A stretch of 64,000 nucleotides of DNA from Anaerolineales bacterium (GCA_034430395.1 DAOUEQ010000052.1:17896-81895); one strand, 5' to 3'. Shown: positions 11,964 through 58,901, counted from the first letter of the stretch. The notes: generated by a model from the letters alone, not told the origin. Numbers and translations are program-made.

Positions 11964-11977
11964 GTCATGCCTTTCGC

Positions 11978-33564: not shown

Positions 33565-34239
33565 CTAGAGGATATCTACGAAAACCTGCTGTGTGATCTT
33601 CCTCCCCAATACTACCGGCGCAGGCTGACCGTTGACCTGAATCTTCAGATTCTCGTCGAAAGGAGAGTACTCAAGGATTGAGACCTTTATCTCCGGCTTT
33701 AAACCCAATCCTCCAAGGTGTCGTAAAAGATCAGGGTCGGAATCATGCACTCTCATAACCATCGCGTGTTGATCCGGGCGCAAATCACTCAAGCGCGTGT
33801 CACATGCTGGAGGGATTTTGAGATCGCGTGAGGGGATGGGATCCCCGTGCGGGTCATGAGTGGGATCACCCAACACCCTGGCGATCCGCTCCTCAAAGTT
33901 TTCAGAGATTACATGCTCCAGTCGTTCCGCCTCATCATGCACTTCTTCCCATGGATAATCAAGTACCTCGTGCAAGAACATCTCTATCAAGCGATGGTGG
34001 CGGACGATCTCCAGCGCTACGCGTTTTCCCTCCGGGGTCAGAGAGACACCATGGTGTTTCTGATAATCAACCCAGGAGGGATCGGCGCTCGCCAGTCTCT
34101 GCACCATCCCGGTGACGGAGGCTGGAGTGACGCCCAAAAGAATGGCTAGGTCCGTCGTCGTAGCCCGCCCACCCGTGGCTGTTAACTTATAGATGGCTTT
34201 AAGATAGTCCTCGATCGCGTGCGTTAGCTGCTCGCGCAT
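33565..34239 (-). CDS. DtxR/IdeR-family metal-dependent regulator with C-terminal FeoA/SH3-like domain
   Basis: IEDYLKAIY, SVTGMVQRL, HRLIE.FL, HDPHGDPIP. Confidence 0.85.
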   Translation of the reverse strand: MREQLTHAIEDYLKAIYKLTATGGRATTTDLAILLGVTPASVTGMVQRLASADPSWVDYQKHHGVSLTPEGKRVALEIVRHHRLIEMFLHEVLDYPWEEVHDEAERLEHVISENFEERIARVLGDPTHDPHGDPIPSRDLKIPPACDTRLSDLRPDQHAMVMRVHDSDPDLLRHLGGLGLKPEIKVSILEYSPFDENLKIQVNGQPAPVVLGRKITQQVFVDIL

Positions 34240-34314
34240 TGGTTAGCTCCAATTGTCAGTGTCGCGCCTGGAATCAACTTATACGCGACACAGTCAGCCA
34301 CGCCAGAATCAAGC

Positions 34315-35754
34315 TCACAGAAAACCAGCTGCAACCCGCCATATCTGAGCCACAAAGAATGTCATTAACACACCCAATACAACTGGCATAATCGTCGCCA
34401 CGGTTGTCCATTTTAAGCTTCCGGTTTCCTTGTAGATCGTGTAGATCGCCGTACTGCACGGATTGTGCACCAGGCTGAACAACATCACATTAACCGCCGT
34501 AAGCAACGTCCAGCCTCCAGTATGAAGCAAAGCCAATGTGCTGGCATTAGAATCAAGCTCAAACATAACCCCTGTACCAGCATCAAAACCCTCGGCGCCG
34601 GTCATCAAAACAGTCAACATCAAGATCGTTGGAATGACGATTTCATTCGCTGGGATAGCTACAACATAAGCCAGTAAAATCACCCCATTCAATCCAAGGA
34701 GGATGCCTACCGGGTCAAGGAAGTGAACGAGATGCTCGGCAATGGTCACTCCGCTAATGGTGATATTCGCGCTCAACCAGATAACAGCCCCCGCCGGCAA
34801 CGCAAAGACGATTGCGCGCCATAACACATAGATGGTGCGATCTATAAGCGATGTATAAATCGTCTGCATGATACGCGGTGGTCGGTAAGGCGGAAGCTCC
34901 ATGCTGAAGCTGGACGGCTCCCCGCGGAGCATCGTGCGCGAGAGAATGAAGTTTACAAGGAAGGTCAACAAGACCCCCAAAACAGCTATCCCCACAACTG
35001 CGAGGGAGGAGATAATCCCGGCGAGATGAGCAGGAACCAACGCTCCGATAAAGATTGTCGCTAAGAGAATCTGGGTCGGCCAACGGCCGTTGCACAGTGC
35101 GAAGTTATTGGTGATGATGGCGATAAGTCGTTCACGCGGACTATCGATAATACGCGTGGCGATCACGCCGGCGGCGTTACACCCGAAGCCCATCATCATA
35201 CTGAGCGCCTGTTTGCCATGTGCGCCTGATTTCTTAAAGGCGTTGTCCAAGTTGAAGGCAACACGCGGTAAGTACCCGAAGTCCTCTAATAGTGTGAAAA
35301 GCGGGAAGAAGATCGCCATCGGCGGTAACATTACGCTGATAACCCAAGCTGTTGCTAGATACATCCCGTCAATCAACAGCCCCTTCAACCAGAGCGGGAA
35401 GCCTAATGAGAGGGCGAGTTCAGACAACCATGGGTGCCCTTTTCCAAGTAACAGAGAGGCAAGCCAACCAGAGGGAACATTCGCCCCGGTGATGGTGATC
35501 CAGAAGACGAGGGCGAAAAGCAGGATCATGACCGGGAAACCCCAGAACCTGTGAGTCACAATCTTGTCGATCGTCCGGTCAAGATCAAACTTCGGAGTCT
35601 CGTCGGAGCGGCTCACCGCCCGATCGGCAATGCTCGCCGCGTCGGTGTAAATGGCCTCGGTGAGAGCTTCGTGCACGTTGCTGCCCACCTCCCAGCGGAG
35701 CGCCCGGGCAGACTTTAAAAGTTTCTCGGAGGATCTCGATCTCTCGTCTCTCAC
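34315..35754 (-). CDS. feoB: ferrous iron transporter FeoB, membrane (gate/nucleoside-recognition) part, locus 1
   Basis: Polytopic 479 aa with FeoB core motifs (GFPV..LLF, YLPRVAF..D, GFGCN..G). Overlaps the upstream G-domain gene by 4 nt. Confidence 0.85.
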
Positions 35755-36602
35755 GATAGTGCCCCCTGTTTCCGCCCCATCTCCGCGCTCGAGATCTCAT
35801 TATCCGTTTGTCTTAAGCTGCCCAATTCGCCTTTGTTAATAGCCTCAATAATTCGTTCATCTCCATCGAGGAGACGCATCGCCACCCAACGGGGGTTTGG
35901 CAGATCTGGATAGACCGCTCTCACTTCTTTGGTTAAAGTTTTGATAGAATTCTCCATGGCGCGCGAGAGCGCCTGGATTCTGTGCGGGTGGTAGGCGAAC
36001 CTACCAGAGGCGACTTCACTGATTGTTGCGACCAATTCGTCCATTCCCTTGCCATAACGCGCCGATGTGGGCACAACAGGAACACCCAGATCGCGCGCAA
36101 GTCGACGTTCATCCACTTCCAACCCGTGGCGGTGAGCCTCATCTATCAAATTTAAACAGATGACAGCCCGATCGGTGATTTCCAATACCTGGATCACCAG
36201 ATTCAGATTCCGCTCTAATCGAGTTGCGTCTACAACTACTACGGTGACATCCGGTTGACCAAAGAGGATGAAATCTCGGGCGATCTCCTCATCGAGCGAT
36301 GTCGATAAAAGCGAATATGTGCCGGGAAGATCCACTAATTTGAAGCGCTGATCGGCGAACTCAAAGCCACCCTCGGCCCGTGTGACGGTCTTCCCGGGCC
36401 AATTGCCTGTGTGCTGGTGCAGGCCCGTGAGGGCGTTAAACACGGTGCTTTTCCCGGTATTGGGATTACCCGCAAGTGCGACGACATAATCCCAATCCTG
36501 CATGTCGACGCCCAGCTTTAATAGGTTCGCGGCGTTATGCACGGGGCAGGTTGCACATTCACTCATTGGAGCCTTCGTTCCTTTATCTACCATCTCACTC
36601 AC
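35751..36602 (-). CDS. feoB: FeoB N-terminal GTPase plus helical domain as a separate polypeptide, locus 1
   Basis: G1 [10 protein letters not shown]3 DLPG, G4 NLID, then a helical segment ([13 protein letters not shown]). N-terminal extension of about 40 aa with CATC. GTG at 36602 or ATG at 36593 after GAGGAG. Confidence 0.85.
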
Positions 36603-36605
36603 TCC

Positions 36606-37616
36606 TCACTCAACCAAGATACGCTTAGCCTGGTCTTCCCGCAGCGCGATCAGTGCACCTCGTATCCGATAGGCTTTCGGATCTCCACCTGGACCAATCA
36701 ACTCGACGCCCACTTTGGTTCCCGGCAGCAGACCCAAATCGAGCAAACGCTGACGATCCAGGCCGCGACATGCTGGTGAAATCGATAGCACTACGGCTGT
36801 TTCGCCGGACTGTATATGGCTCAACGGCTTTCCGATGGGTTCCTCCGCCTCCACATCAGGAAGAGGCAAGACAGAGATATTTGCGGCCACCACAGGAGCC
36901 AGGGTATGCTCGTCGCCTCCGGCCCAGAAGCGCAACCGTTCGGGCGTCCGCTCGACGAGCCGCAGAAGCATACCTGGATGCAAACCTTCCGCGACGAGCT
37001 GTGCGTAGACTACGTCCGGCTCGTCCTCAAGATGGACGATGCGCAGGGGGATGTCAACCTCGGCTGCAGTGAGCGGCGCACCACCATGATGGACAATTTC
37101 TCCATCCGCTGCGGGTATGGGATCCCCATGTGGATCATGTGTGGGGTATCCTAGTTTCGCCGAGAGCGTTTCAACCTCAGAGGGTGTTAGTTCGTGTTCA
37201 TACCGCTCGGCGAGATCATGCCATTCTTGTTCGCTGTATCCTGTCTTGTCTGCCAGGTATCGTTCCCACATGCGATGTGCACGTAAAGTATGCAGCGCCG
37301 ACTCACGACCCGCAGGTGTCAAGCGGATACCACCGTTGCTTATTTGAGCCAGATTATGCTCCTCAAGCTCAGATAACGTCGCTGACGCCTTGTTGAGGTT
37401 GACTCCTAGCGCGCCGGCAATGCTTTGAATCGATGCCACTGACCCGCCCATCTCACAATTGTGGATGTGTTTCAACGCATCCTCGCGGCGGATGTGGGCG
37501 GTCATCCAACGTCCCTGCTGCCAACGCGCATAAAGTCCGTTCGCCGGCCAAAAAACCCACAGCGCTATAAACAACAAACCAACGCCAATTATCAATGTTA
37601 TTAACGAATCACTCAT
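36606..37616 (-). CDS. membrane-anchored DtxR-like regulator fused to two FeoA-type domains
   Basis: TM LITLIIGVGLLFIALWVFW, DtxR-like core (HRMWERYL, HDPHGDPIP), then two SH3/FeoA-like segments. The last is GETAVVLSI......RLLDLGLLPGTKV. Confidence 0.65.
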   Translation of the reverse strand: MSDSLITLIIGVGLLFIALWVFWPANGLYARWQQGRWMTAHIRREDALKHIHNCEMGGSVASIQSIAGALGVNLNKASATLSELEEHNLAQISNGGIRLTPAGRESALHTLRAHRMWERYLADKTGYSEQEWHDLAERYEHELTPSEVETLSAKLGYPTHDPHGDPIPAADGEIVHHGGAPLTAAEVDIPLRIVHLEDEPDVVYAQLVAEGLHPGMLLRLVERTPERLRFWAGGDEHTLAPVVAANISVLPLPDVEAEEPIGKPLSHIQSGETAVVLSISPACRGLDRQRLLDLGLLPGTKVGVELIGPGGDPKAYRIRGALIALREDQAKRILVE

Positions 37617-39945: not shown

Positions 39946-41646
39946 TTATGCAAAACCTAACAAATGCCCCAACTGAAAGACAAGGGTCGCAACGAGCCAA
40001 GCCATCCCGGTCTGGCTCACCGCGGAAAATAATGCCCACCAACCTCCGAATTCCGTGCGGATCGCCCCCAGTGTGGCCATGCAGGGGGTGTATAACGAAA
40101 CGAATACGATGAACGCCAAAGCGGAAAGTGGTGTGAAGGAATCTTGTAACACAGAACTGAGAGCGGTACCCTCTTCTTCTCTCTCGCCTTCGCCTGCGAA
40201 TAACGGAACCCCGGGAGTGAAGGTGTCCAATAACCGCTCCCCTGCGCGAATAGTGGCCACAATAAAACCTCTGCCAATGTCTACCAAATCCTGAAGCGGT
40301 TTGATTTCACTTTTCGCATCGGTCTCTCCGGGCTCGTCCAGATAGATCTGGGTCATCGTCGCGATCACCAGTTCTTTTGCGACCATGCCCGTTATGAGCG
40401 ATCCTGAAGCCTCCCAGGTTCCAAAACCTGCGGGCTTTAACACAGGGGAAACAAAGCTACTAACTTTCCCGAATGCACTCTGCTCCAAACTAGAACTTTT
40501 AGGTGGGACGTTCAGAAGCAACCACACAACCAGAGATGCAGCCAAAATCAGCGTCCCTGCATTGCGCAAAAATTCACCCGTCCTCAATGAAACATGGATC
40601 CACAAATTACTCAATCTTGGTAGGCGATAAGAGGGTAGCTCCATCAGGAAGGCCATCTCTTCAGATGATCGAAGCAGCGTGCGCGAGTAGAAGAAACCCA
40701 ACAAGACCGCCGTGGCAATTCCGAGTGCATACAAACCCCATATGACCCGATCCGCACTTTGCCCGAAGAATGCCATTCCGAACACAACATATACTGGAAG
40801 CCGCGCTGAGCACGACATTAAAGGCACCAGCAACGCAGTGAGTAAGCGGTCACGGCGACCATTCAGTGTCCGCGTGGCATAAATCCCAGGGACCGCACAA
40901 CCAAAGCCAAGGATTAATGGCACGAAGCTCTTTCCCGTTAGCCCCAAGAATGAAAGGAAGCGATTCATCACAAACGCGACGCGAGCCAGGTACCCGCTAT
41001 CTTCAAGTAAGCTAATGAAAGCAAATAAAACAACGAGACCCGGAACAAAAATCAGAACACCACCAACACCTGCAATGGCACCATCCAGGATTAACCCACG
41101 CAACCAGATGGAGGCTCCAATTGAAGATAGCAAAGCTCCTGCCCAGCTAGAAATCGGTCCCGAAATAACCGCATCGATCCACTCCAGGTACGGCTCCGAG
41201 ACATTCACAACCAGACTGAAGACCAGGTACATCACCATCATAAATATCGGAATCCCCAGCCATGGATGGGTGACGACGCGATCTGCCCGCTCCATGCGCG
41301 AGTTGGCAAGTACCTTTGGGCGCTTGAGTGACTGTTCCACGACCCTGCCCACAAGCTCATAGCGTCTGTCGGCCATGGCAATATCCAGCCCTTCGGGGAC
41401 CTGCTCCTCCAGCCTCTTGCGGATCGAACGAACCCGTTCCAGGACAACACTGGCATCTTCGACGCCGAGAATGTGTTCAAGAAGGTCTATCTCCCCTTCG
41501 AGCACCTTTACGGCGAGCCAGCGCGGTTTAATTTGCTCCGGGAGCACAAAGCGCTCTTCAATGAGCGCTCTCAAGTTCTCGATTTCAGGCTCGATCACAG
41601 GTCCATAATCGATTTGAAAAAAAGGGTTGGATTTGGGCTTGGTCAT
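39946..41646 (-). CDS. feoB: FeoB helical (GDI-like) domain plus membrane part, locus 2
   Basis: N-terminus IENLRALIEE...PRWLAVKVLEGE (helical domain), then a polytopic FeoB core (YLARVAFVMNRF, GFGCAVPG). Confidence 0.85.
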   Translation of the reverse strand: MTKPKSNPFFQIDYGPVIEPEIENLRALIEERFVLPEQIKPRWLAVKVLEGEIDLLEHILGVEDASVVLERVRSIRKRLEEQVPEGLDIAMADRRYELVGRVVEQSLKRPKVLANSRMERADRVVTHPWLGIPIFMMVMYLVFSLVVNVSEPYLEWIDAVISGPISSWAGALLSSIGASIWLRGLILDGAIAGVGGVLIFVPGLVVLFAFISLLEDSGYLARVAFVMNRFLSFLGLTGKSFVPLILGFGCAVPGIYATRTLNGRRDRLLTALLVPLMSCSARLPVYVVFGMAFFGQSADRVIWGLYALGIATAVLLGFFYSRTLLRSSEEMAFLMELPSYRLPRLSNLWIHVSLRTGEFLRNAGTLILAASLVVWLLLNVPPKSSSLEQSAFGKVSSFVSPVLKPAGFGTWEASGSLITGMVAKELVIATMTQIYLDEPGETDAKSEIKPLQDLVDIGRGFIVATIRAGERLLDTFTPGVPLFAGEGEREEEGTALSSVLQDSFTPLSALAFIVFVSLYTPCMATLGAIRTEFGGWWALFSAVSQTGMAWLVATLVFQLGHLLGFA

Positions 41647-42191
41647 ACAATTGGATCCGGTGTTCGTTCTTTGGATTTTTGTTTCGTATAAAGTAGTATC
41701 GCCTCTTTCAATTCTTCAATGCCCTTGCCTCGAGCGGCTACCATCCCGATCACCGGGACACCGCCCAGCTCCTCTGACAAGTTGTCGATATCAATCTCGA
41801 AACCAATCGTTTCTGCCATATCCGTCATATTCAAAGCTACCAGCACTGGAAGTTGCAGTTCAAGGATCTGCACTACAAGATATAAGTTCCGCTCCAGATT
41901 TGAGGCATCGACCACGACCACGACGATGTCTGCTTGCCCCTCAAGTAAATAGTCGCGCGCTACAATCTCCTCTTCGGAATACGCCGCCAGGCTGTACGTC
42001 CCCGGCAGGTCCATGACCTCTATCCACATGCCAGCGTGTGTATACCGACCGCTTTTTCGCTCGATCGTTTTACCGGGCCAGTTTCCGGTATGCTGCCGCG
42101 AGCCGGTGAGATGATTAAATACTGTAGTCTTCCCGGAATTTGGGTTTCCCGTCAAAGCAATTGTCAGATCTGTATTACGCCTCATCTTCAT
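41643..42191 (-). CDS. feoB: FeoB GTPase domain only, locus 2
   Basis: G1 GNPNSGKTT, G3 DLPG, G4 NMTD; 182 aa. 4-nt overlap with the downstream membrane part. Confidence 0.85.
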   Translation of the reverse strand: MKMRRNTDLTIALTGNPNSGKTTVFNHLTGSRQHTGNWPGKTIERKSGRYTHAGMWIEVMDLPGTYSLAAYSEEEIVARDYLLEGQADIVVVVVDASNLERNLYLVVQILELQLPVLVALNMTDMAETIGFEIDIDNLSEELGGVPVIGMVAARGKGIEELKEAILLYTKQKSKERTPDPIV

Positions 42192-42594
42192 CTCTATCGG
42201 ATCGCATCGGATCTACACCATGGGACAAATTTCTTCTTCGCCTTCTAGGTCGACGACTTCTTCTTCCCCGATCTCTTGGTCCGCCCCCATGACCCCAACG
42301 GCGCCAGCCCTTCCGCCAATGTAATAACTCAGGCATCGGTTCCAGAGGGGTGACGAATAAATGATGGGCTACCCTGCGATCAATCGCCAACTGTGATCCT
42401 CGCACCCGCAGCAACAGCGGTTGCCCGGGATCCGCCTGAACAACTGTGATCTCAGTGCCAGGGTTTATTCCCATTTCTGCCAAGCGCCGAGACCTGCGAC
42501 CATGGTGCGTAAATCCAACCATGCGCACGCGGCCACCCGACGGCACATCGCTGAGAAGCCTAGTTTTGTATTCGCGTTCTGTCTCTGGGCTCAA
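42175..42594 (-). CDS. feoA: FeoA-domain protein with Arg-rich C-terminal tail
   Basis: GGRVRMVGF......RRLAEMGINPGTEITV FeoA fold, then RDRGRRSRRPRRRRRN. Overlaps the feoB G-domain gene by 17 nt. Confidence 0.7.
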   Translation of the reverse strand: MSPETEREYKTRLLSDVPSGGRVRMVGFTHHGRRSRRLAEMGINPGTEITVVQADPGQPLLLRVRGSQLAIDRRVAHHLFVTPLEPMPELLHWRKGWRRWGHGGGPRDRGRRSRRPRRRRRNLSHGVDPMRSDRDEDEA

Positions 42595-42597
42595 AAC

Positions 42598-43314
42598 TCA
42601 CTCCATTTCGTTGTCTTCCACCAGCTCGATGAGAATATGCTCTGCCACCTCACGACCTATAACCTGTTCCTCTCCATCCACTAAGACCGAGCGAGGCCCG
42701 TCATATGGCGCGATCTCCTCGATGCAAACCCGGACACCGGGTCGAACTGTACGAGCATCAAGATACTCCAATATCTCACCATCCTCCTCGCGAATACACA
42801 GAACTACTCCATCCTGTCCGACGTCGAGATCAGAAAGTAGCGTCGCAGTCCTAACTTCAAATACGCCCTGGGAAGGCGGGATAGGATTGCCATGTGGGCA
42901 AAAAGAGGGGAAGCCAAGATACTTATCTAGCGCATCCGTCAGCACATCTTCGCTAACATGCTCTAACTGACAGGCATAATCATGGACAAGCTTCCAGGGA
43001 AGCCCGAGGTGCTCCACCAAAAAACATTCCCATAAGCGGTGCCGCCGCAGAATGCCCCCCGCCCGGTCCCAGCCATCAGCAGTCAGCCGCACCCCCTTGT
43101 ATGGCGTATGCTCCAACAAACCGCGATCCTGAAGTCGGTGCACCATCTCGCTTGCGGAAACCGTTGAGATCCGAAGCCGCTCAGCGATATTTGGAACTGG
43201 AACGAGATTCCCATGACGGGAAATCTCGGCGATTGTTTTCAAATACATCTCTTCGCTTTCAGCGAACTCGTGCAACTCTTTCATGCTACTTCCCCTGAGC
43301 AAGTAACTCCGCAT
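42598..43314 (-). CDS. DtxR-family metal-dependent regulator with C-terminal FeoA/SH3-like domain
   Basis: MYLKTIAEI, SASEMVHRL, HRLWECFL, CPHGNPIP. The likely true start is the ATG at 43284 (MKELHEF) after GGGGAAG. Confidence 0.85.
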   Translation of the reverse strand: MRSYLLRGSSMKELHEFAESEEMYLKTIAEISRHGNLVPVPNIAERLRISTVSASEMVHRLQDRGLLEHTPYKGVRLTADGWDRAGGILRRHRLWECFLVEHLGLPWKLVHDYACQLEHVSEDVLTDALDKYLGFPSFCPHGNPIPPSQGVFEVRTATLLSDLDVGQDGVVLCIREEDGEILEYLDARTVRPGVRVCIEEIAPYDGPRSVLVDGEEQVIGREVAEHILIELVEDNEME

Positions 43315-46208: not shown

Positions 46209-46520
46209 ATTACTTATTCAGTCAATGGACACGACGATGAACTGCATCTCGTCATTGGCTATAAATACGTTCAATTGATCTTCAATCGTTGAAGCCCTTC
46301 GGTTCCACTGCAACCTTAAAAACCCCGGCACACACGAACAGGTGGCGGAGATGGTTGCGTGATTTCAACAGCCCGGTGCAATGACGGGATGCATAACTGT
46401 CAGCGTGAAAAATAACATGGTGCGAGGTTGTCGAATCGCAGGGCAATACATCAACAACTTGGGGTGCAAAAGAGGGTTGAAAGTAGTACAGTGTTTGTAG
46501 TCAAAGAAAGGTGTTCTTGC

Positions 46521-47657
46521 ATGGATTTGCGTCAACTCTTCCTCCTCGACCCCGCTGTAACGTACTTGAATCACGGATCCTTCGGCGCTTGCCCAAAGCC
46601 TGTATTCCAGGCATATCAGGGATGGCAACTCGAACTCGAGCGCCAGCCGGTGGATTTCCTCAACCGAAAGGCGCCAGGATTAATGGCTGAGGCACGTGGC
46701 GCTCTAGCTGAGTACGTCGGCTGTGGGGCGGATGACCTGGTGTACTTCCCTAACCCCACAACGGCGATCAACATGGTTGCGCGCAGCCTGAAACTTGGAG
46801 CCGGAGACGAAATCCTGACAACGGATCACGAATACGGCGCTGTGAACCGGACCTGGCGCTTTATCTGCAATCAGAGTGGCGCACGCTACATCAGGCGTGC
46901 GGTCCCGCTTCCTCTTTGTGAAGACGAGGCCTTTATTGAACATTTTTGGTCCGGCGTAAACAAACACACCCGCGTAATCTTTATCAGCCACATCACCAGT
47001 CCGACGGCACTTAAATTTCCCGTGAAGGAGATTTGTGCTCGGGCGCGCGAGGCTGGACTCTTAACCATTGTCGACGGCGCTCATGCCCCGGGTCAAATTC
47101 CTCTCAATCTTAAAGAACTCGGCGCCGATGTTTACACCGGCGCCTGTCATAAATGGCTCTGCGCTCCAAAAGGTGCCTCTTTCCTGTACGCGCGCCCGGA
47201 AGTGAGGGATATTCTCGAGCCTCTGGTAGTGAGCTGGGGCTGGGAGGCGGAGCAACCTGGAGCATCACGTTTTATTGATTATCACGAATGGCAGGGCACG
47301 CGCGATATAGCGGCTTTTCTGTCCGTCCCTGCCGCTATCGAATTTCAACGCAAATATCGGTGGGATGATGTGCGCCGCCACTGCATTGAACTTGCTGCAG
47401 AGACGAGGGATCGTCTGCTTGAAATTATTGGGACCGCCAGGTTGACTGGATCACAGGAGTGGACGTTGCAGATGGCTGCGGTTGAACTGCCAGAACCCAA
47501 TCACGATATCCAACACAAACTGCTTGAGGAGCATAATATCGAGATCGCCGTCCAAAAATGGTCTGGTCGCTCCTACATGCGTTTTTCTTTTCAAGGTTAC
47601 AACAACCGTGAGGATGCCAATGCGCTGATTAATGCGGTTCAGACTCTTTACTCTTAA
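46521..47657 (+). CDS. class V aminotransferase-fold PLP enzyme (cysteine desulfurase / isopenicillin-N epimerase-like)
   Basis: YLNHGSFG start motif, DGAHAPG, CHKWL (PLP Lys). Start trimmed to MDLRQLF at 46521. Confidence 0.75.
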   Translation: MDLRQLFLLDPAVTYLNHGSFGACPKPVFQAYQGWQLELERQPVDFLNRKAPGLMAEARGALAEYVGCGADDLVYFPNPTTAINMVARSLKLGAGDEILTTDHEYGAVNRTWRFICNQSGARYIRRAVPLPLCEDEAFIEHFWSGVNKHTRVIFISHITSPTALKFPVKEICARAREAGLLTIVDGAHAPGQIPLNLKELGADVYTGACHKWLCAPKGASFLYARPEVRDILEPLVVSWGWEAEQPGASRFIDYHEWQGTRDIAAFLSVPAAIEFQRKYRWDDVRRHCIELAAETRDRLLEIIGTARLTGSQEWTLQMAAVELPEPNHDIQHKLLEEHNIEIAVQKWSGRSYMRFSFQGYNNREDANALINAVQTLYS

Positions 47658-47793
47658 TCGCGTGCACTGCGGGAGCATTAAATTGAAAGACGGAGGCGTG
47701 GACAATGACCGTCGGAATACTCCTGCGCAAACCAGTCGCCCTTCCATTTGCCCTTCTTGCCATCTCAATGGACAATCCCAAAATCACCATCCT

Positions 47794-48330
47794 ATGAAAA
47801 AGCTCAAGATCGATTGGACAATGGTTGCCCTTTCCGCCGTGGCGCTCGCCCTGGCGGGCGTTGCCTGGTGGAAGGGCGGTCAGGACCTCGCTCTGGAGGG
47901 GCTTCGCCAGGGCTTTCAAACTCTTGTGTCGGTCACGCCGATGCTACTCGCGGCTTTTCTGACAGCTGGCTTAACGAACGTTCTTATCTCCAAGGAGCTG
48001 GTGGAGCGCTGGCTCACGACAAGTGCGGGCTGGAGGGGCATCCTGCTTGGCTGCATCGGGGGTGCACTGATACCCGGGGGGCCCTACGTTTACTACCCGA
48101 TTGCCGGCAGCCTGCTGCAATCCGGCGCGGGCTTGGGCGTGCTCGTGGCTTTCGTCATGGCCAAGAATCTTTGGTCGATCTCACGGCTTCCTTACGAGTT
48201 CGCTCTCTTAGGGCCACACCTGACGCTCGTGCGTTACGGTCTAACGCTGATCTTCCCACCGTTGCTCGGCTACCTCACTGAAACGCTGTTTGGGAACACC
48301 ATCGAGCGCATACGCGAGGCTATCCAGTGA
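47794..48330 (+). CDS. permease half-protein (DUF318/ArsP-like), first half
   Basis: About 5 TMs with the LIPGGPYVYYPIAGSLLQSGAGLG motif. Start trimmed to MKKLKIDW. Confidence 0.5.
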   Translation: MKKLKIDWTMVALSAVALALAGVAWWKGGQDLALEGLRQGFQTLVSVTPMLLAAFLTAGLTNVLISKELVERWLTTSAGWRGILLGCIGGALIPGGPYVYYPIAGSLLQSGAGLGVLVAFVMAKNLWSISRLPYEFALLGPHLTLVRYGLTLIFPPLLGYLTETLFGNTIERIREAIQ

Positions 48331-48812
48331 TCGAGTCCACCATCACCCTAATCTTGATCGCACTTTTCCTTCTACTAATCGCCTGGCGCCGCCATGACGG
48401 CAGCCACGTTAAGGGCGCCCGAGTCGGTTTGCAGACCCTTAGGCGCACCCTACCGCTGCTGGTCATCGCCTTCATCATCGTCGGCTACGTAAATGCCCTC
48501 GAACCCCAATCCCTGGTTCAAAATTGGATAGGACCCGGAACAGGACTGCAAGGCGTACTAATCGGGACAGCCGCCGGCATGCTCCTTCCCGGCGGACCTT
48601 ACGTCGTCTTTCCGCTCATCGCCATCCTTTTCCAATCCGGTGCCGGGCTGGGTCCGACGTTGGCGATGATCACCTCCTGGGCGGCTATCGCCTTGCTTAG
48701 CGTATCCTTCGAACTCCCTTTTTTAGGCTGGCGCTTCACCAGAATCCGACTCGGATTCGGCCTGTTAGTCCCCATCCTGGTTGGATTACTGGGAATATTG
48801 TTTGTTGGGTGA
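48327..48812 (+). CDS. permease half-protein (DUF318/ArsP-like), second half
   Basis: Paralogous motif LLPGGPYVVFPLIAILFQSGAGLG; GTGA overlap with the first half. Confidence 0.5.
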   Translation: MIESTITLILIALFLLLIAWRRHDGSHVKGARVGLQTLRRTLPLLVIAFIIVGYVNALEPQSLVQNWIGPGTGLQGVLIGTAAGMLLPGGPYVVFPLIAILFQSGAGLGPTLAMITSWAAIALLSVSFELPFLGWRFTRIRLGFGLLVPILVGLLGILFVG

Positions 48813-51520: not shown

Positions 51521-53236
51521 ATGAATTCGTTAATTATAATAATTCTAGCTGCACTCGGCATTGGTATAGGGTACGGGGTATACGCCCGTAGAATCGACAA
51601 GGAGATTGTACAGCCCAACGACGCGAAAGCCACTCCGGCAAGGATGTACATGGACGGAGTGGATTTCACGCCAGCCAGCCGTAACGTTCTTTTCGGCTAC
51701 CAATTCAAGTCCGTCGCTGCTTTAGCCCCATTGACAGGTCCCATTGTAGCTGTCCAGTGGGGTTGGCTACCGGCCCTGTTGTGGATTATCCTGGGCGTCT
51801 TTTTCATCGGCTGGGTCCAAGACTATGGTTCCTTGATTATGGGCGTGCGACGTGATGGTGAGACAATGAGCGCTTTAAGCTACAAGCTCATCTCGCCCCG
51901 TGCGCGCACGATCCTTTTAATCTTTATCTACTTCTATCTGCTGCTGATCATGGGCGCGTTTGGAAACGCCGTGGGGAAGGCGCTGATGATCAAACCGGAG
52001 GTACCATTCGGCATGATTGCCCTGGTTCTGATGGGTGTTATCGCCGGACAGATGACCTATAAATGGAAGCAAGATATCATCCTAACCAGCATTGTTACAG
52101 TAGTGCTCACATTCGTGGGAATCTGGGTCGGGACGCTACCGGCTGTTTCGAATTTCTTCACCGGCCTGTATGGAGGGGCGGATTCACCGGTCATCTTCTT
52201 GGGCAACACCCAGGCGGCAGTTGTTGGTACGCTGCTCATGTTGTTGTTCTGCTATCTCGGTTCGGTTCTCCCGATCTGGTCCTTCGCTCAACCGGTTAAC
52301 TATGTTTCCTTCTGGATCGTCACACTGGGTATGGCCGGCGGTTTGGTCGGGCTTCTGATCTGGCACCCGGGCATGGGCGACTTCCCGGCCTTTACCGGCT
52401 TTAACGCCGCAGCCGGCCCGCTGTGGCCCATGCTCTTTGTCACGATTGCCTGTGGGGCCATCTCCGGCTGGCATAGCCTGGTATCCACATCGGGTACTGC
52501 ACGCCAATTGGAGAAAGAGACTGACGCCCTGCCTGTGGGCGGAGGCGCAATGTTCCTGGAAGCCGCCTTCGCCATCATGGCCTTCCTGACAGCAACCGTG
52601 GCTTTCGGCGGTTGGCAGGGATTCCTGGATGCCGGCGGCGCAGGCGCAGCGTTGGCAGTCTTTGCGGGCGGTTTGGCTGCCTTCTTAAGCCGCATCGGAA
52701 TTCCACTGGGCTTTGGCGTGGCCTATGGCTCGGTCTTCCTGACCATCATGGCGATTACCATTATGCAATTGGTGGTGCGCTTCATGCGCGTGGCAAGCTC
52801 CGAGATGGTGGGCGATAAGATCCCGGTGATGAAGAATGTGCATGTAGGCAGCCTGGTTGCTTTGGCCCTGACAGCCCTGTTCGTATGGATCATCCCATGG
52901 CTGACGATCTGGGTTGCCTTCGGCGCTGCTAACCAGCTCATGGCTGGTCTGGCCTTGCTGCTAGTGTCCTTGTGGCTACTATCGGAAGGAAGAAAGTACA
53001 ACTGGGCTCTCTACCCGGCGATCTTCATGATCGTCACCGACATCGCCGCCCTGCTCTATGTCGCCTATGTCAACCTGTTCAAGAAGCTGCCGGCGGCTGA
53101 GACCACGCAGGCGACGGTGGCTGCATCTCTGATCGGGATTATCTGCGTCGTACTGGTGGTAGCCGCGCTTATCCTGGTTTGGGATGGGATCCAAGCGCTC
53201 CAGCAAGCCAGGCAGGCAAAACCAGCCGAAGTCTGA
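51521..53236 (+). CDS. cstA: carbon starvation protein A family transporter
   Basis: FGYQFKSVAALAPLTGPIVAVQWGWLPALLWI..G..FIG.VQDY is characteristic of CstA; 571 aa, polytopic; SD AAGGAG upstream. Confidence 0.9.
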   Translation: MNSLIIIILAALGIGIGYGVYARRIDKEIVQPNDAKATPARMYMDGVDFTPASRNVLFGYQFKSVAALAPLTGPIVAVQWGWLPALLWIILGVFFIGWVQDYGSLIMGVRRDGETMSALSYKLISPRARTILLIFIYFYLLLIMGAFGNAVGKALMIKPEVPFGMIALVLMGVIAGQMTYKWKQDIILTSIVTVVLTFVGIWVGTLPAVSNFFTGLYGGADSPVIFLGNTQAAVVGTLLMLLFCYLGSVLPIWSFAQPVNYVSFWIVTLGMAGGLVGLLIWHPGMGDFPAFTGFNAAAGPLWPMLFVTIACGAISGWHSLVSTSGTARQLEKETDALPVGGGAMFLEAAFAIMAFLTATVAFGGWQGFLDAGGAGAALAVFAGGLAAFLSRIGIPLGFGVAYGSVFLTIMAITIMQLVVRFMRVASSEMVGDKIPVMKNVHVGSLVALALTALFVWIIPWLTIWVAFGAANQLMAGLALLLVSLWLLSEGRKYNWALYPAIFMIVTDIAALLYVAYVNLFKKLPAAETTQATVAASLIGIICVVLVVAALILVWDGIQALQQARQAKPAEV

Positions 53237-53727
53237 TCTTCCAAAAGCGGCGGGTTCCTAGCCGGATGCGGAGCCATCTCGAACATCCATATGCCGATCA
53301 TGGAGGCAAAATCTCGAACGGCATCCCTGGACTAACAAGATAGTCGGTCGAAAGAACTGGGGGTGGGCTGGTGCACAATACGATCCAGACTCACCCCCAG
53401 AGATTGTATGAGGTTTGCCAGCGATGCCAGCATAAATCTATTGGGGCTTCGTGCTTTCACTAAGGCGTTGGGGGCGACTCTACCCGGCGTTCGTAATGCA
53501 GGGTCGCGAAGCGTACGTCGGCTGGGATCGGAAAGCCTTGGATCATATCATTCAGGAGTGTTTATTGGGGCAAGTGGAGCTGAGCAAAACTGCATGAAAG
53601 TTAAGAGCCGGTGACCGGGGTTGGTCTTCCAGGTTCCACACCGACTTCGGAAGTGCAATGTTAGAGGTTATAAAATGCTGCTGATAGGGACGATTGCACA
53701 CATCGAGGAACGATGAGATGATCTCCC

Positions 53728-54015
53728 ATGGCTGAACCGTTCCCGCAGCTTGTCAGAAAAGTCGTAAAGACAATCCGTGAGGTTTTTTACGGGATGACGA
53801 TCTACGACTGGGTCCACGAGCTGCAGAAGGCCCGCAATGAGAGGGATCGTCTTTTCACACTGCTCGTCTATGGGGATCTGCTCGGGATCCCGGTCCTTCC
53901 ACCGTACTATACGTTGCGACTGCTGCCATACCTTATTCCAGGTTATGAAAACTGGCGAAGGAGTATGTTGCGCGAGCGGGATTTCACCGACCTCTTCGAC
54001 CAAGAAATTGGATGA
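53728..54015 (+). CDS. small conserved hypothetical protein, paralog A of the ArsA/Get3-associated pair
   Basis: 95 aa. Shares LF.L...GDLLG.P.LPPYY.LRLLPY..P....W.R.MLRERD.TD with the next ORF. SD is weak. Confidence 0.55.
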   Translation: MAEPFPQLVRKVVKTIREVFYGMTIYDWVHELQKARNERDRLFTLLVYGDLLGIPVLPPYYTLRLLPYLIPGYENWRRSMLRERDFTDLFDQEIG

Positions 54016-54141
54016 ACGGGCTCCTTCCTGCTCCGGACCGTGTTCGTGGATCCAAGGAAACCCCGGGTTTAAAGCGGATATTGTTAAGCACTTATTGTGA
54101 AGGATTAGGTTGAGAGCATAGATTAAACAGGAGGACGGGAG

Positions 54142-54417
54142 ATGTCTGAAGAAGAAAAAAATTGGTTAAAGAAAATTGGGCAGTCTGTTATTCAATTCAT
54201 CTATGGCATGGCAGGCCACGATATGACCCGCTTTGCCTTGAAGACCCGCGGCAGCATGGAGCATCTCTTCATCCTGATAACAATGGGTGATTTATTGGGA
54301 GTCCCAATCCTGCCGCCCTACTATTCACTTCGTTTGCTGCCCTATGTCGTCCCCCAGATTTCAACTTGGAAACGCCGTATGTTGCGCGAGAGAGATCTCA
54401 CCGACGCGTTGGCTTAG
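54142..54417 (+). CDS. small conserved hypothetical protein, paralog B of the ArsA/Get3-associated pair
   Basis: 91 aa, strong SD AGGAGG 7 nt upstream; 31/49 identical to paralog A over the C-terminal region (hand alignment). Confidence 0.65.
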   Translation: MSEEEKNWLKKIGQSVIQFIYGMAGHDMTRFALKTRGSMEHLFILITMGDLLGVPILPPYYSLRLLPYVVPQISTWKRRMLRERDLTDALA

Positions 54418-54430
54418 GAGGGCTAACCGC

Positions 54431-55456
54431 ATGTCATTGGCAAAGATGCTAAAGGAAAATCCTAATCGTCGCTACATCATGTTCGGAGGCAAAGGCGGCC
54501 TTGGAAAGACCACTTTCTCCGCAGCAACAGCCTACCATCTGGCCCAATCCGGCCACCGCGTGCTGGTGTTCTCAGTCGATCCGCAAGCTTCTCTATCGGA
54601 CATTTTCGAACGGGACATTTTCGGCAAGGGAGCGGTTGAGATCATGCCCAATCTCTACGCCCAAGAAATCGATGCGGATCAGCACATCCGGGCATACCAG
54701 CAGGAAATCCGCCAGAAGATCCTGGATATGTATGGCATGGAACAGATCCCGGAGGAGATCGAGAACTACATCCAGGCCGCCGCGGCTGAACCTGCCATGG
54801 AAGAGAGCGCCATTTTCGACCAGGTCGTGGACATCGTCATGGCCGAGGAATATGACTACTACATCTACGACCTTGTGCCGCTGGGGCATGCTCTCTACTA
54901 CCTCAGCATGGCGAGTGTCTATGACGAGTGGATTGACAAGATAACCCGCCTTCGCCAGGAGATGGAGGAATATTCGCAAGTCGCCTCGGTGATCAAACGC
55001 GAGGAGACCAGCGAAGAGGATATGATCTTGACCGAATTGATGGATATAAAACACCGCATCAATACCTCTTCCGGCATCCTAACCGACAAAGAGAAGACGG
55101 CGTTCTATTTCGTCATCATCCCAGAGGAGATGATTCTGCTGGATACGGCCAAGGCGGCTGGCCTATTCGCTAAGTATGATGTTCCGCTCTGCGGTTACAT
55201 TGTCAACCGCGTCATTCCGCCCGAACTGGCCGATCAGAATATACCTGCTTATCTGCGCAATCGTCTCGAGATGCAAGAGACTCACCTGAAACACATTCAC
55301 GAGCAGTTTGGCGATCAGGTCCTGGCACACATCCCTGAGTTCGAACGAGATGTCACCGGGCTGCCTATGATCAAGAAGATGGCTGAGGCGATGTTCGGCT
55401 CTGGTCCAGAAGGATCCACCCAACAGGGTATGCCGAGCGGAGGAATACTGTCATGA
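54431..55456 (+). CDS. ArsA/Get3 (TRC40)-family SIMIBI ATPase, subunit A
   Basis: Deviant Walker A FGGKGGLGKTT, switch I VDPQASLSD, variant switch II YDLVPLGHAL. ATG 54431 after AGGAGG; the track ORF from 54287 is an upstream extension. Confidence 0.85.
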   Translation: MSLAKMLKENPNRRYIMFGGKGGLGKTTFSAATAYHLAQSGHRVLVFSVDPQASLSDIFERDIFGKGAVEIMPNLYAQEIDADQHIRAYQQEIRQKILDMYGMEQIPEEIENYIQAAAAEPAMEESAIFDQVVDIVMAEEYDYYIYDLVPLGHALYYLSMASVYDEWIDKITRLRQEMEEYSQVASVIKREETSEEDMILTELMDIKHRINTSSGILTDKEKTAFYFVIIPEEMILLDTAKAAGLFAKYDVPLCGYIVNRVIPPELADQNIPAYLRNRLEMQETHLKHIHEQFGDQVLAHIPEFERDVTGLPMIKKMAEAMFGSGPEGSTQQGMPSGGILS

Positions 55457-56427
55457 TCACTAAATCTACTTTGGACTTCCTGAATGAGAAATCAAGGCTA
55501 AAGTATGCCTTCTTCGGTGGCAAGGGCGGGGTTGGAAAGACCGTGCTCGCGGGTGCAACTGCTTTGTGGCTTGCGGAGCAAGGTAAGCGCACACTCCTGG
55601 CTTCGACCAACCCGGTTCATAGCCTATCCAGCTTGCTTGATCAGGACGTTTTCGGAGTCCGCACCCCGGTCAATGATGCGCCGAACCTGACCGCCTATGA
55701 GATCGACACACGCGACACGATTGAGCGGTCCAAGCAGGAAATTCGAGAGAAGATCAGCTGGTTTCTCAAGTATGCCGACATCAAAACCAAAGCCGACGAA
55801 TTTGTGGAATCAGCAACTATGAACCCAGCCTTTGAAGAATCTGCTATGTTCGAGAACATGATCGACCTGATGTTCGAGGACGAATATGACGCCTATGTAT
55901 TTGATACAGCCCCGACTGCCAACGCACGGCGCCTACTGGGGATGTCCTCTGTCTATTCGCTCTGGGTCAACAAGATGATGAAAAGCCGAGAGGAAGCCAC
56001 ATCGCTGCGCGAGTTGCTCTCTTATAGTCGCAAAAAGCAGCAAAAAGATCCGCTCATGGACTATCTCTTAAGTTTTCGGCAACGGATGCTGCACGCAAAA
56101 GAATTACTCACCGACCCTGAACTCACCGCCTTCTTCTTCATAACCTTGCCGGAAGCTTTGCCAATCGCGGTCATCACACGCTTCATCCATTGGTTCAAGG
56201 ACTTCGGCATCCCCGTCGGCGGCGTGATCGTCAACATGTTGATTGACAAGGAAAGCGTGAAGGAGGATTCACCGGATTTCGTCAAAAACCGTGTGGCCAT
56301 GCAGGCGGAATATATGGACGAGATCGAGAAAAAATTCAATGGATCTGTCCGGGCGATCGTCCCTCTCTTCGAGACTGAAGTCCGTGGTGTTGAGATGCTG
56401 CAGCGGACCGCCAAATATTTGTTTTAA
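55453..56427 (+). CDS. ArsA/Get3 (TRC40)-family SIMIBI ATPase, subunit B
   Basis: FGGKGGVGKTV, TNPVHSLSS, FDTAPTANARRLLG (GH of DTAPTGH lost); ATGA overlap with subunit A. Confidence 0.85.
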   Translation: MITKSTLDFLNEKSRLKYAFFGGKGGVGKTVLAGATALWLAEQGKRTLLASTNPVHSLSSLLDQDVFGVRTPVNDAPNLTAYEIDTRDTIERSKQEIREKISWFLKYADIKTKADEFVESATMNPAFEESAMFENMIDLMFEDEYDAYVFDTAPTANARRLLGMSSVYSLWVNKMMKSREEATSLRELLSYSRKKQQKDPLMDYLLSFRQRMLHAKELLTDPELTAFFFITLPEALPIAVITRFIHWFKDFGIPVGGVIVNMLIDKESVKEDSPDFVKNRVAMQAEYMDEIEKKFNGSVRAIVPLFETEVRGVEMLQRTAKYLF

Positions 56428-56500
56428 TGATCGTGCTTTATGGTATTAATATAACGCCAGCCGGCTATCCTATGCAAAGCACGGCCGGCGAGGACTTCCT

Positions 56501-57133
56501 ATGAATCTCTATATAATGATTCTCATCTTAGGTTTTTCCTACGCCTTGTTGTTCGGCTTTTTATCGCGCCTCAAGCGTGAGGGGATCTCCCTTCAATTCA
56601 CATTGGAAGCTAGTTTGATCACGCTGCTGGTTGCAGGGGTGGGCTACTTCGGCACTTTGGACGTCAATCCATTCCTCTTTCTTGTGTTCGTTTATTTAGT
56701 CACCATGCGCTCCCGGCTACTTACGGATCTTGCCAACATGTTATCGGGAAGAGGCCGCCAAAGGGACGCCATAGCAATCCTGCAAGTGGCGCTGAGTTTA
56801 TTCCCCGATAAACAAACCCGTCTGATTGTGCTAACCAACATGGGAGTTGTACAACTTCTAAGAAAAAACCCTGCCAGTGCCGAAGACATCCTGAGATCGG
56901 TTTTTGACGAGGCCAAAGATGGCGGCTTGGGAATTCGCTACGAAGCAGCCTGCAACTATAACCTGGGGATCGCCTTGCGCGAGTTAGGTCAGGATGCGAA
57001 ATCCGTACAGTACCTTCGTGAAGCCGCGGAGGGTTTTCCGGGTTCGGCCTATGGCAAAGCTGCTCAGAGAGCCCTAGAAGAACGTCGCCTGGGGAAGAAG
57101 AAGCAGACCGCCCGGTCGGAGTCAGAGGATTAA
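56501..57133 (+). CDS. membrane protein with 3 N-terminal TM helices and a cytoplasmic TPR-like domain
   Basis: TMs at residues about 3-21, 33-50 and 55-70. TPR-like helices follow (AIAILQVALSLFPD, YNLGIALRELGQDAKSVQYLREA). SD GAGGA upstream. Confidence 0.6.
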   Translation: MNLYIMILILGFSYALLFGFLSRLKREGISLQFTLEASLITLLVAGVGYFGTLDVNPFLFLVFVYLVTMRSRLLTDLANMLSGRGRQRDAIAILQVALSLFPDKQTRLIVLTNMGVVQLLRKNPASAEDILRSVFDEAKDGGLGIRYEAACNYNLGIALRELGQDAKSVQYLREAAEGFPGSAYGKAAQRALEERRLGKKKQTARSESED

Positions 57134-57293: not shown

Positions 57294-57328
57294 CCTGCGG
57301 GAGGTTGAATTGACCTCCCGCAGGTTTT
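57294..57328 (+). terminator. rho-independent terminator-like hairpin
   Basis: Perfect 12-bp stem CCTGCGGGAGGT/ACCTCCCGCAGG, 7-nt loop, then TTTT. Lies between convergent genes. Confidence 0.6.
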
Positions 57329-57374: not shown

Positions 57375-58619
57375 TTATAGTGACAATCTCACCTCAGTAC
57401 CTGGCTTTAATGCCGCCCAGGAAAACCAGAAATGCTCCCCCGAGATCACTCGCTCGAGCTGGGTGCCCTCCAGTGGTCCAGTGACGGCGTGACCGAGCAG
57501 GTTCCAGCGCGTGCCCGTTTCCTGATCTTCAAAACCGTCCGCCTTTGCAACGAAGGTTAGAGTCTGCCCCTCAACCTCGCGGCTGAAAACACCCGTCGAT
57601 CCGGTATCTGGCCCATTGTTGCCAAAAGCAGAAACCGTGCCTGACTCCCAGAAAATGACGATTGATCTTCCCGCAACCTCGTCGTTCACAACTTTTTCAT
57701 CCGTGAGCCGGCTAAATGGATAAGCGATCGTGACATCCTCGATGTCAATCGCAACCACTCGCTCCATCGGCAGGAGCCGTTCATCCTCACCTTCCACGGG
57801 AAAAAACGGGCTGCTGTTAATGCTGTCGTACCCGGCGTAAGGATTCACACCATAGTCACGAACAGCGCCTGTGTCACGGGCGAGAACCTTGCCGTCTGGA
57901 TGGGAAGCCTTGAAATCAGACCAGGCGATGATCTGTGAGGGGAGAAAATCGAGCATTGTGCCCGTCAGATCACCGACGATGGCCTCTCCTATGAACTGCT
58001 GCCACCAGGAGAATGTCTGGCGATCGTACATGACCAAATCCGAATTGCGCAGGTTTCCGCTCGTCCCAAAGTCCAGCACCTGCCCGTCGTCGAGCGTGCG
58101 CCGGAAGGCGATCATCGTATTGCATAGAGGACAAAAGGTTACGGCCACCGGCTCGCCAGCGACCATGTCGTTGACGATCTCATGCCAGATCAAGATCGCC
58201 TGCGGATAAGCCCGCACGTCGCCGTCGATCTCAAATAACATCACCGACCAATCCTCGCCCAACCACTCACCTGCGTCTTTGACACTTTCGAAAACAGGTT
58301 TGTCGATAGCTGGAATCGCGTCGAGGACAGGATTACCGGTGAAAATTTCGCTCAAGTCGACGCTGTGTTTACAAAAATTCGTCCGCTCAAGCCAGAACGT
58401 CTGCCGGAAGGATATTTCGATGCCCTCAAATGGATAACCGCAGCCCTCGACATCCTTTGAACGCGTGGAGGAAACCGTGGCTTCGGACACATCATCGGCA
58501 GGAATCTCCGGCGTTGGACTCCCAACTGGGTTCTGTACAGTTACTGATGCACATGCGGCGGTGACCATTGACAGAAAACCAATGAAGAGCAAAGGTATCA
58601 ACTTTCCATTATTTAACAT
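57375..58619 (-). CDS. DUF3179 domain protein (probable lipoprotein)
   Basis: DAIPAIDKPVF, VAVTFCPLCNT, FGTSGNLRNSDLVMYDRQT.SWWQQ. ATG 58619 after AAGGGGTGG; lipobox-like MVTAAC. Confidence 0.8.
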   Translation of the reverse strand: MLNNGKLIPLLFIGFLSMVTAACASVTVQNPVGSPTPEIPADDVSEATVSSTRSKDVEGCGYPFEGIEISFRQTFWLERTNFCKHSVDLSEIFTGNPVLDAIPAIDKPVFESVKDAGEWLGEDWSVMLFEIDGDVRAYPQAILIWHEIVNDMVAGEPVAVTFCPLCNTMIAFRRTLDDGQVLDFGTSGNLRNSDLVMYDRQTFSWWQQFIGEAIVGDLTGTMLDFLPSQIIAWSDFKASHPDGKVLARDTGAVRDYGVNPYAGYDSINSSPFFPVEGEDERLLPMERVVAIDIEDVTIAYPFSRLTDEKVVNDEVAGRSIVIFWESGTVSAFGNNGPDTGSTGVFSREVEGQTLTFVAKADGFEDQETGTRWNLLGHAVTGPLEGTQLERVISGEHFWFSWAALKPGTEVRLSL

Positions 58620-58901
58620 TCGTATTCCACCCCTTAACGTCTCCTGGATGCGAGCATGCCTCGCGGCCAGAGTCAACCCAGGGTTCTTCCTTTAGATGGA
58701 ACGGATGGCGCTGTTCTTACGGACTCCACCCTCCGTTTTGGCATACGTTCAAGATCATTGAGAATACCCACAAGAGAGCACAGCCGTTGTGAGCTCCTAC
58801 TTTCTATGCGACCTGGGGACATCGCTGACGCGCTAAACCCACACCCACAACATTCTCACTTGACAGCGCATCCGCCCGTCGGTAGCATTCCCCCACGTTC
58901 A

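Follow-up and report, generated by a model that had tools for sequence, protein, structure and literature searches.

Gene content of the locus

Within a 64,000-nucleotide (nt) window of DNA from an Anaerolineales bacterium (GCA_034430395.1 DAOUEQ010000052.1:17896-81895), we analysed a gene cluster encoding two small paralogous proteins, two ATPases of the Get3/ArsA family and a protein that combines transmembrane (TM) segments with tetratricopeptide repeats (TPR). Coordinates of the locus are positions within this window. An earlier note on this DNA had described five co-directional genes, with small paralogs, ATPase genes overlapping through ATGA and a three-TM TPR protein, and all of these were found where it had placed them or nearby. 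Its five-gene unit is one gene short: the five genes are the 3′ part of a six-gene unit opening with cstA, the conserved membrane partner, which lies directly upstream here, in most related loci and in distant phyla, and is also kept in an Asgard archaeon. The features of the locus are as follows.

51521-53236, + strand: cstA, 571 amino acids (aa), about 16 hydrophobic segments by hydropathy; PF02554 CstA, E 1e-112
53436-53594, + strand: remnant of a thioredoxin-like CxxC gene ('t'); 53 codons of the C-terminal part, the CxxC half being lost
53728-54015, + strand: S1, DUF7990 paralog 1, 95 aa; orthologs in related loci are annotated PF25952:DUF7990
54142-54417, + strand: S2, DUF7990 paralog 2, 91 aa; strong AGGAGG Shine-Dalgarno site
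54431-55456, + strand: ATPase A, single-domain Get3/ArsA family, 341 aa; true ATG at 54431, preceded by GGAGGG
55453-56427, + strand: ATPase B, single-domain Get3/ArsA family, 324 aa; its own ATG overlaps the TGA of A (ATGA)
56501-57133, + strand: TM-TPR protein, 210 aa; three N-terminal hydrophobic segments, then TPR repeats
57294-57328: perfect 12-bp GC-rich hairpin plus TTTT, from the sequence and a terminator scan

The same 341-, 324- and 210-aa products were present in independent gene calls, on 22 metagenome contigs with an identical B protein. The perfect hairpin reported earlier is real; it reads CCTGCGGGAGGT-7 nt-ACCTCCCGCAGG (57294-57324), followed by TTTT, and the terminator scan assigned it to the minus strand. 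It lies between two convergent genes, those for the TM-TPR protein (+) and for a DUF3179 protein (57375-58676, -), and so may be a bidirectional terminator serving both.

The core genes recur from Chloroflexota to an Asgard archaeon

Gene neighbourhoods were surveyed in one genome per species. A first wide alignment (A3) was too diverse for a genome scan, and a narrower one (A4) was used instead, with the pattern PPYY[ST]LRLLP. From at least 599 matches the best 80 loci were taken, and these were scored by comparing the window proteins with six-frame open reading frames (ORFs). Likeness to S2 decided the choice of loci, most of which are Chloroflexota; the fractions given here describe the S2 clade plus a few distant samples, not the whole family.

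A DUF7990 gene was followed by ATPase A in 77 of 78 loci, and A by B in 70 of 71. In 55/60 loci, cstA lay no more than 3.5 kilobases (kb) upstream, on the same strand as the DUF7990 genes. At least two DUF7990 genes were present in most loci (67/80), and a TM-TPR gene followed B in 40/53. As the earlier proposal of a dedicated module had implied, the small-protein genes are almost obligatorily beside the ATPase pair. Recurrence in nearly every related locus examined argues that the arrangement is not due to chance.

Loci labelled Thermodesulfobacteriota, Smithellaceae and Phycisphaerae lacked S1 and the TPR gene and kept cstA-DUF7990-A-B. More distant family members were traced via a protein collection; named DUF7990 members belong to Heimdall-, Hod- and Thorarchaeota, Deltaproteobacteria, Spirochaetota, 'Firmicutes' and Thermoanaerobaculia. 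The gene order was cstA, two DUF7990 genes, A and B on a deltaproteobacterial contig, and cstA, DUF7990, A and B on a soil contig. On an Acidobacteriota-like contig a reverse-strand gene of 207 aa separated cstA from two DUF7990 genes, A and B; on Anaerolineales contigs the gene in this place had 215 aa, likewise on the reverse strand, and a third DUF7990 gene came after B. On a Hodarchaeota (Asgard) contig (L092), DUF7990-A-B occupied 8001-10381 (+), with cstA 1.6 kb downstream on the opposite strand (11965-13878, -).

Some Anaerolineales have three DUF7990 paralogs, two before A/B and one after (L089 8001-10901; L091 8001-10901). One paralog class in these loci has a conserved ...EHDYHL(E/H)G(L/V) C-terminus, an end that S1 and S2 do not have. 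Three loci with modules 86-96% identical to the window S2, namely L008 (DASRZI010000512.1), L012 (CAWKCE010000005.1) and L005 (GCA_964528475.1), lie on contigs that bear the label Zixiibacteriota or Actinomycetota, and the small protein of L005 has an Egibacteraceae source name. All other close relatives of the window module were Anaerolineae, and the odd labels are probably errors of metagenome-assembled genome binning or labelling.

The window CstA also matched NF011590 (pyruvate/proton symporter CstA), with a score below the cut-off of that model. Across the 63 complete loci its mean identity to orthologs was 65%, and it was 37% identical to the Asgard CstA.

A Get3-like ATPase pair with one apparently degenerate site

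ATPases A and B are 32% identical to each other. Both matched PF02374 ArsA_ATPase (A, E 1e-70; B, E 5e-69) and exceeded the cut-off of 135 bits for TIGR00345 GET3_arsA_TRC40 (236 and 225 bits). The closest PDB entries were archaeal Get3 structures, 3ug6 and 3zq6 for A (E 7e-61) and 3ug6 for B (E 6e-55). Likeness to Get3 of M. jannaschii (3ug6) and M. thermautotrophicus (3zq6) extended over the full length, including the helical insert; these proteins are likewise single-domain and, as far as they were aligned, show no CxxC zinc motif. They are, however, the products of single genes and are described as homo-oligomers, whereas the window module has two diverged genes, tied to cstA and DUF7990, in which B is without the catalytic Asp and the switch II Gly-His.

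Hallmarks of the ATPase family are the deviant Walker A motif GKGGVGKT, a catalytic Asp in switch I and a switch II of the form DTAPTGH. The nucleotide-binding motifs of A and B were sharply divided. In all 81 orthologs of A examined, the P-loop was GKGGLGKT(T/S), switch I SVDPQAS and switch II D(L/M)VPLGH; A of the window has GKGGLGKTT, SVDPQAS and DLVPLGH, with the switch I Asp kept. All 72 orthologs of B had GKGGVGKTV, STNPVHS and DTAPTAN, that is, an intact P-loop, a switch I in which Asp is replaced by Asn, and a switch II that has lost its Gly-His. The division held in deltaproteobacterial, Anaerolineales, Acidobacteriota-like and soil-contig pairs, and in the Asgard pair too (STDPQAS versus SLNPVHS). 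We take the Asn of B to stand at the position of the catalytic Asp of Get3 (yeast D57). Yeast Get3 D57N binds ATP without hydrolysing it. Given the invariant split and the Asn at this position, the sequences of the pair are best read as those of an obligate heterodimer in which one nucleotide site is catalytic and the other degenerate, and the arrangement as an old one.

The region of the Get3-type helical insert spans 65-69 aa in A and B, compared with 72 in M. jannaschii Get3, and is equally hydrophobic (42%), with four to five Met residues as against nine. Many of its polar positions are invariant, the archaeon included, so that the region is specifically conserved and not Met-rich. Ortholog sequences held no conserved Cys in A or B, and hence neither a metalloid site nor a CxxC zinc site; in this the pair differs from eukaryotic Get3, which dimerises through a CxxC-bound zinc.

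Membership of PF02374 might suggest the ATPase of an arsenite or antimonite pump whose permease is encoded elsewhere, for example by two PF03773 (ArsP_1-family) ORFs at 47632-48812, 3 kb upstream of cstA. We consider there to be next to no chance of this. Arsenical ArsA of Escherichia coli (E. coli) has its two domains fused in a single chain, carries a metalloid-binding Cys triad and belongs to an ars operon, whereas A and B are single-domain proteins, have no such triad and scored 100 and 111 bits against TIGR04291 (ArsA), far below its cut-off of 650. Pfam scans of about 60 other ORFs of at least 90 aa in the window found no arsR, arsB, acr3 or arsC, the PF03773 ORFs being the nearest thing to an exception, and related loci with inspected gene calls had no PF03773 gene next to the module. 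As the earlier note had proposed, the ATPases are Get3-like, judged by sequence, and not arsenic-pump ArsA, and the local context is not that of an ars operon.

That note had also mentioned the Mycobacterium tuberculosis pair Rv3679/Rv3680 (BagA/BagB; 6bs3), a heterodimer likewise encoded by two adjacent single-domain ArsA-like genes. A role like that of BagA/BagB would make A and B a stress-protection ATPase pair. Matches to the corresponding models NF053622 and NF053621 were weak (53 and 37 bits for A, 51 and 31.5 for B, against cut-offs of 400 and 521). The E-values against 6bs3 were about 1e-6 to 1e-7, compared with 1e-55 to 1e-61 against archaeal Get3 structures. The sequences are thus very distant, we found no evidence here of a link of the Bag genes to cstA or DUF7990, and a BagAB-like role appears highly improbable.

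A further possibility is a general housekeeping holdase or tail-anchor targeting factor of the Get3 type, whose gene neighbours are incidental. Membership of TIGR00345 would fit, and uncharacterised Get3 homologues that carry a TRC40-like insert occur widely in bacteria (PMC6593721). Synteny with DUF7990 and cstA is nearly invariant between phyla and domains, which speaks against incidental neighbours, and we regard this explanation as very unlikely. A candidate role in anti-phage defence was rejected: PADLOC models gave only P-loop-length matches to PDC-M28B and a match to a generic TPR model.

The small DUF7990 protein S2 is more conserved than the ATPases

S1 and S2 were 45% identical over 88 aa (E 3e-14) and are therefore paralogs. 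A local copy of Pfam matched neither, but the homologs of S2 (83-97% identical) and the orthologs of S1 carry precomputed PF25952 annotations, a family that gene tables name DUF7990. For S2 there were 6391 homologs, and the 120 best all had the annotation; a search of 1.84 billion cluster representatives with a DUF7990 profile gave 444 clusters at 50% identity. The earlier note did not recognise the small proteins as any named family, which agrees with their place in this uncharacterised one. NF041419 ('cory-CC-star protein') was the only curated model to detect them, over the conserved core, at 44.9 bits for S1 and 33.9 for S2 with the cut-off at 80; despite the name of that model, S1 ends in ...QEIG and S2 in ...DALA, neither with Cys-Cys.

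The conserved core of the family is YGM...LFxLxxFGDLLGxPxLPPYYSLRLLPYxxPxxxxWKRRxLRERDxTD. Ranked by identity to the window proteins over the 63 complete loci (means for S2, A, B and CstA; medians for S1 and the TPR protein), S2 came first (83%), followed by A and B (76% each), CstA (65%), S1 (60%) and the TPR protein (39%). S2 is thus the most conserved component, and it is conserved over its whole length; of the two copies S1 is conserved less, and many loci outside Chloroflexota lack it. The DUF7990 protein of the Asgard locus was 64% identical to S2, whereas the corresponding A and B were 47-51% identical. An identity of 64% across domains is unusually high and suggests strong constraint or lateral transfer.

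Each small protein has a single hydrophobic peak at residues 42-60, with a Kyte-Doolittle value of 1.4-1.6 over 19 residues. The stretch contains Asp and Gly and leads into PILPPYY, after which comes a 20-residue tail that is strongly basic and acidic. On these features it may form a short membrane-dipping hairpin with both ends cytoplasmic. An AlphaFold2 model of S2, made from a 42-sequence alignment, had three helices (3-52, 59-72 and 74-90), with a mean predicted local distance difference test (pLDDT) of 84 and a predicted TM-score (pTM) of 0.49; as modelled, S2 is probably extended and in need of partners. Neither a Foldseek search of the PDB with this model nor a profile search of PDB sequences gave a match.

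In one database protein (P0181), the C-terminus of CstA is joined to a DUF7990 domain. A second apparent fusion, the natural tandem P0121, was rejected: all of its homologs align to the first half only, and the junction resembles a microhomology chimera.

The properties of DUF7990 bear directly on what the ATPases might do with it. In a dedicated Get3-like biogenesis system, a reading near to that of the earlier note, A and B would capture the C-proximal hydrophobic segment of freshly synthesised DUF7990 proteins, or segments of CstA, and deliver them post-translationally to the membrane, with the TM-TPR protein or the single-TM proteins of about 210 aa found at other loci as receptors; ATP would then be spent on assembly, not on transport. 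Archaeal Get3 proteins are the closest solved relatives of the pair, the Get3-type insert region is kept, the sole hydrophobic stretch of DUF7990 ends about 30 residues before the C-terminus, and small membrane proteins recur beside the module. As a TM helix, however, the 42-60 stretch is weak, with its low hydropathy, its Asp and Gly and its run into PILPPYY, and the strongly charged tail would need to cross the membrane. Conservation in the insert helices is specific, with about half as many Met residues as M. jannaschii Get3 has, and the candidate receptors are dispensable in many lineages. Conservation of DUF7990 over its whole length, above that of the ATPases, is also unlike that of a mere client. 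We therefore judge biogenesis improbable, if still the foremost competitor to transport coupling. The earlier note had proposed that the small proteins are clients or adaptors; the comparison of S2 with the ATPases counts against the first role, and adaptor or coupler is the better fit.

Accessory genes differ between lineages

The TM-TPR protein has hydrophobic segments at 3-21, 29-47 and 50-68 by hydropathy, and matches TPR_12 (E 1e-9), TPR_2 and other TPR families. Its gene was confined to Chloroflexota-type loci, with none in the distant set, and is fast-evolving (median identity 39%). Poor conservation and absence outside these loci point to a lineage-specific accessory, not the core membrane docking partner for which it had been taken.

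An intact 't' gene (about 125-135 aa, with CxxC) lay between cstA and the first DUF7990 gene in 32/80 loci, and in some database proteins it is fused to DUF7990. No Pfam or NCBIfam model matched it; a profile of 13 copies gave weak thioredoxin matches in the PDB (E 0.001-0.007). A tblastn search with 't' of locus L001 (5216-5620) hit window positions 53445-53555 (49% identity, E 1e-7). Having lost the CxxC half, the window copy is probably a pseudogene.

Another gene, 'Y', encodes a protein of about 210 aa with an N-terminal TM segment and adjoined the module in 28/80 loci, as well as in distant loci. It is absent from the window, and Y proteins had no Pfam or NCBIfam match. Compared by hhalign with a 229-aa protein encoded beside the Asgard cstA, Y scored a probability of 19% (E 0.001). 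Examples of Y are as follows.

L001 9127-9759, - strand
L005 3311-3940, + strand
L089 7288-7935, - strand
L095 9818-10453, - strand
L097 6288-6911, - strand

The unit corresponds to an operon type described in 2010

The association of these genes had already been described. In the passages concerned, Castillo and Saier (Int J Microbiol 2010:187373; PMC2963123) report, from genomes of bacteria and archaea, including cultivable organisms, operons of cstA, cstX and an arsA homologue. CstX is given there as a 'single TMS' (transmembrane segment) protein of about 90 aa, present in 24 systems, and CstY as a 'single TMS' protein of about 210 aa in five archaea. CstX proteins of the paper include those of T. 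kodakarensis, P. abyssi, P. arsenaticum, S. thermophilum and B. halodurans. The ArsA homologues, one or two per system, are single-domain proteins of about 330 aa, with no co-occurring ars genes, and Pyrobaculum arsenaticum and Symbiobacterium thermophilum have adjacent pairs of them that are 25-31% identical. In the proposal of the authors, CstA is energised by the ATPase and CstX serves as a linker or coupler; they also gave trees for co-evolution.

As far as those passages go, the window cluster fits the 2010 description in every testable respect: cstA is adjacent and co-directional, S1 and S2 have 95 and 91 aa and one hydrophobic segment each, and the ATPases are a single-domain pair of 341 and 324 aa, 32% identical, with no ars genes. 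It differs in its source, an uncultured Anaerolineae-type genome, and in gene content, with paralogous small proteins, a gene for a TM-TPR protein and a thioredoxin-like gene in decay. DUF7990 is very probably the CstX of Castillo and Saier, matched by the descriptions and not by sequence, and S2 in particular is probably 'CstX' on the same comparison; Y fits the published account of CstY. No CstX sequences are given in the paper or its supplement. A search with an archaeal-looking family member (P0212) gave no match named for organisms in the 2010 list, and a tblastn search against plasmids gave none. Beyond the 2010 paper, the literature searched made no mention of CstX, DUF7990, PF25952 or cory-CC-star.

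The system type has therefore been known since 2010, and what we add is incremental. Set against the passages of the 2010 paper on these operons, which do not give the Asp/Asn asymmetry of the pair or an assignment to DUF7990 (PF25952), the additions appear to be the invariant catalytic/degenerate split between A and B, including that in an Asgard archaeon, the DUF7990 assignment and the extreme conservation of that family, and the lineage-specific accessories.

DUF7990 may couple the ATPase pair to CstA

We give an even chance to the reading that CstA, the DUF7990 proteins and an A/B heterodimer form one membrane complex, with the ATPase coupled through DUF7990 to the carrier. Its observed basis is the gene set, kept in order and strand, its joint conservation across domains, the asymmetry of the motifs and the ranking by conservation. 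In particular, it is supported by near-invariant synteny (77/78, 70/71 and 55/60 among loci from 80 species-level genomes) and the same core in distant loci. Further support comes from the 2010 precedent (PMC2963123, in the passages cited), the family precedent of ArsA and ArsB, the invariant A/B motif split, the retention and specific conservation of the Get3-type insert, and the joining of CstA to DUF7990 in P0181. A conservation order with S2 at the top would fit a small subunit with several fixed interfaces.

Physical contacts, topology, and the direction and purpose of coupling we infer as follows. A and B would form a Get3-like dimer in which the A site is catalytic and the B site binds ATP but hydrolyses it poorly. 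DUF7990 would run from a long cytoplasmic helix through a short hydrophobic hairpin, rich in Pro, to a basic C-terminal helix. It would lie against CstA on the cytoplasmic side of the membrane, where the helical subdomain of the ATPase dimer could grip it. ATP-driven closing and opening of the dimer might then be coupled to CstA, so that substrate transport is energised or gated, much as ArsA acts on ArsB. Optional accessories would be the TM-TPR protein in this Anaerolineae lineage, and the thioredoxin-like protein and the single-TM protein of about 210 aa elsewhere. The substrates of characterised CstA homologues are peptides or pyruvate.

The comparison with the arsenical pump extends only so far. 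ArsA energises the secondary carrier ArsB, and the E. coli proteins share with the proposed complex the ATPase superfamily, a pseudo-dimer with non-equivalent sites and, if our proposal holds, an ATPase acting on a secondary carrier. ArsB is unrelated to CstA, and we know of no small coupling protein in the ArsA-ArsB system.

Several points weigh against coupling of the ATPases to CstA. Among characterised proteins, A and B are nearest to the archaeal Get3 proteins, which are reported to bind tail-anchored proteins, not to drive a transporter. One DUF7990 gene (in L094) is an orphan that has no ATPase gene and no cstA closer than 8 kb, 5/60 loci showed no upstream cstA, and the census sample is biased by its choice through S2 similarity towards Chloroflexota. 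The P0181 fusion has no contig on record and could be an artefact. Equating DUF7990 with CstX, as the 2010 passages describe it, is a match of descriptions and not a sequence comparison. No CstA has a solved structure, and the literature searched shows no experiment on any member of the module.

The wider claim, that this is an ancient machine of Asgard archaea and bacteria in which a Get3-type heterodimer, with DUF7990 as its fixed receptor or coupler, drives or gates a CstA carrier, we advance only tentatively and hold to be on the doubtful side. To our knowledge, prokaryotic Get3 homologues outside ars operons have no established function. The module offers such ATPases a concrete and strongly conserved partner set, comprising CstA, DUF7990 and a catalytic plus a degenerate ATPase, with a reach that extends to thousands of metagenomic sequences, counted as homologs of S2, and to Asgard archaea. 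The role of prokaryotic Get3-like ATPases thereby becomes testable as a choice between an ATP-coupled or ATP-gated nutrient carrier and a dedicated membrane-protein assembly factor. If the machine is real, a Get3/ArsA ATPase would for the second time, independently of ArsAB, have made a secondary transporter ATP-dependent, and prokaryotes would have an analogue of the Get3-receptor interaction. For annotation, A and B should not be named arsenical pump ATPases, and DUF7990 should be linked with cstA.

Other genes in the window

The two PF03773 (ArsP_1 'predicted permease') ORFs upstream of cstA overlap and are half-size (47632-48330 and 48327-48812, +; 38 and 47 bits). Ahead of them is a gene for a class-V aminotransferase (46428-47657), and together the two ORFs look like a split permease. 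Farther upstream are two neighbouring FeoA/FeoB iron-uptake clusters (33565-37616 and 39946-43314, -). Each contains a fusion of a DtxR-type repressor with FeoA, and each encodes FeoB as separate ORFs, one for the GTPase (FeoB_N) and one for the membrane part (Gate/FeoB_C).

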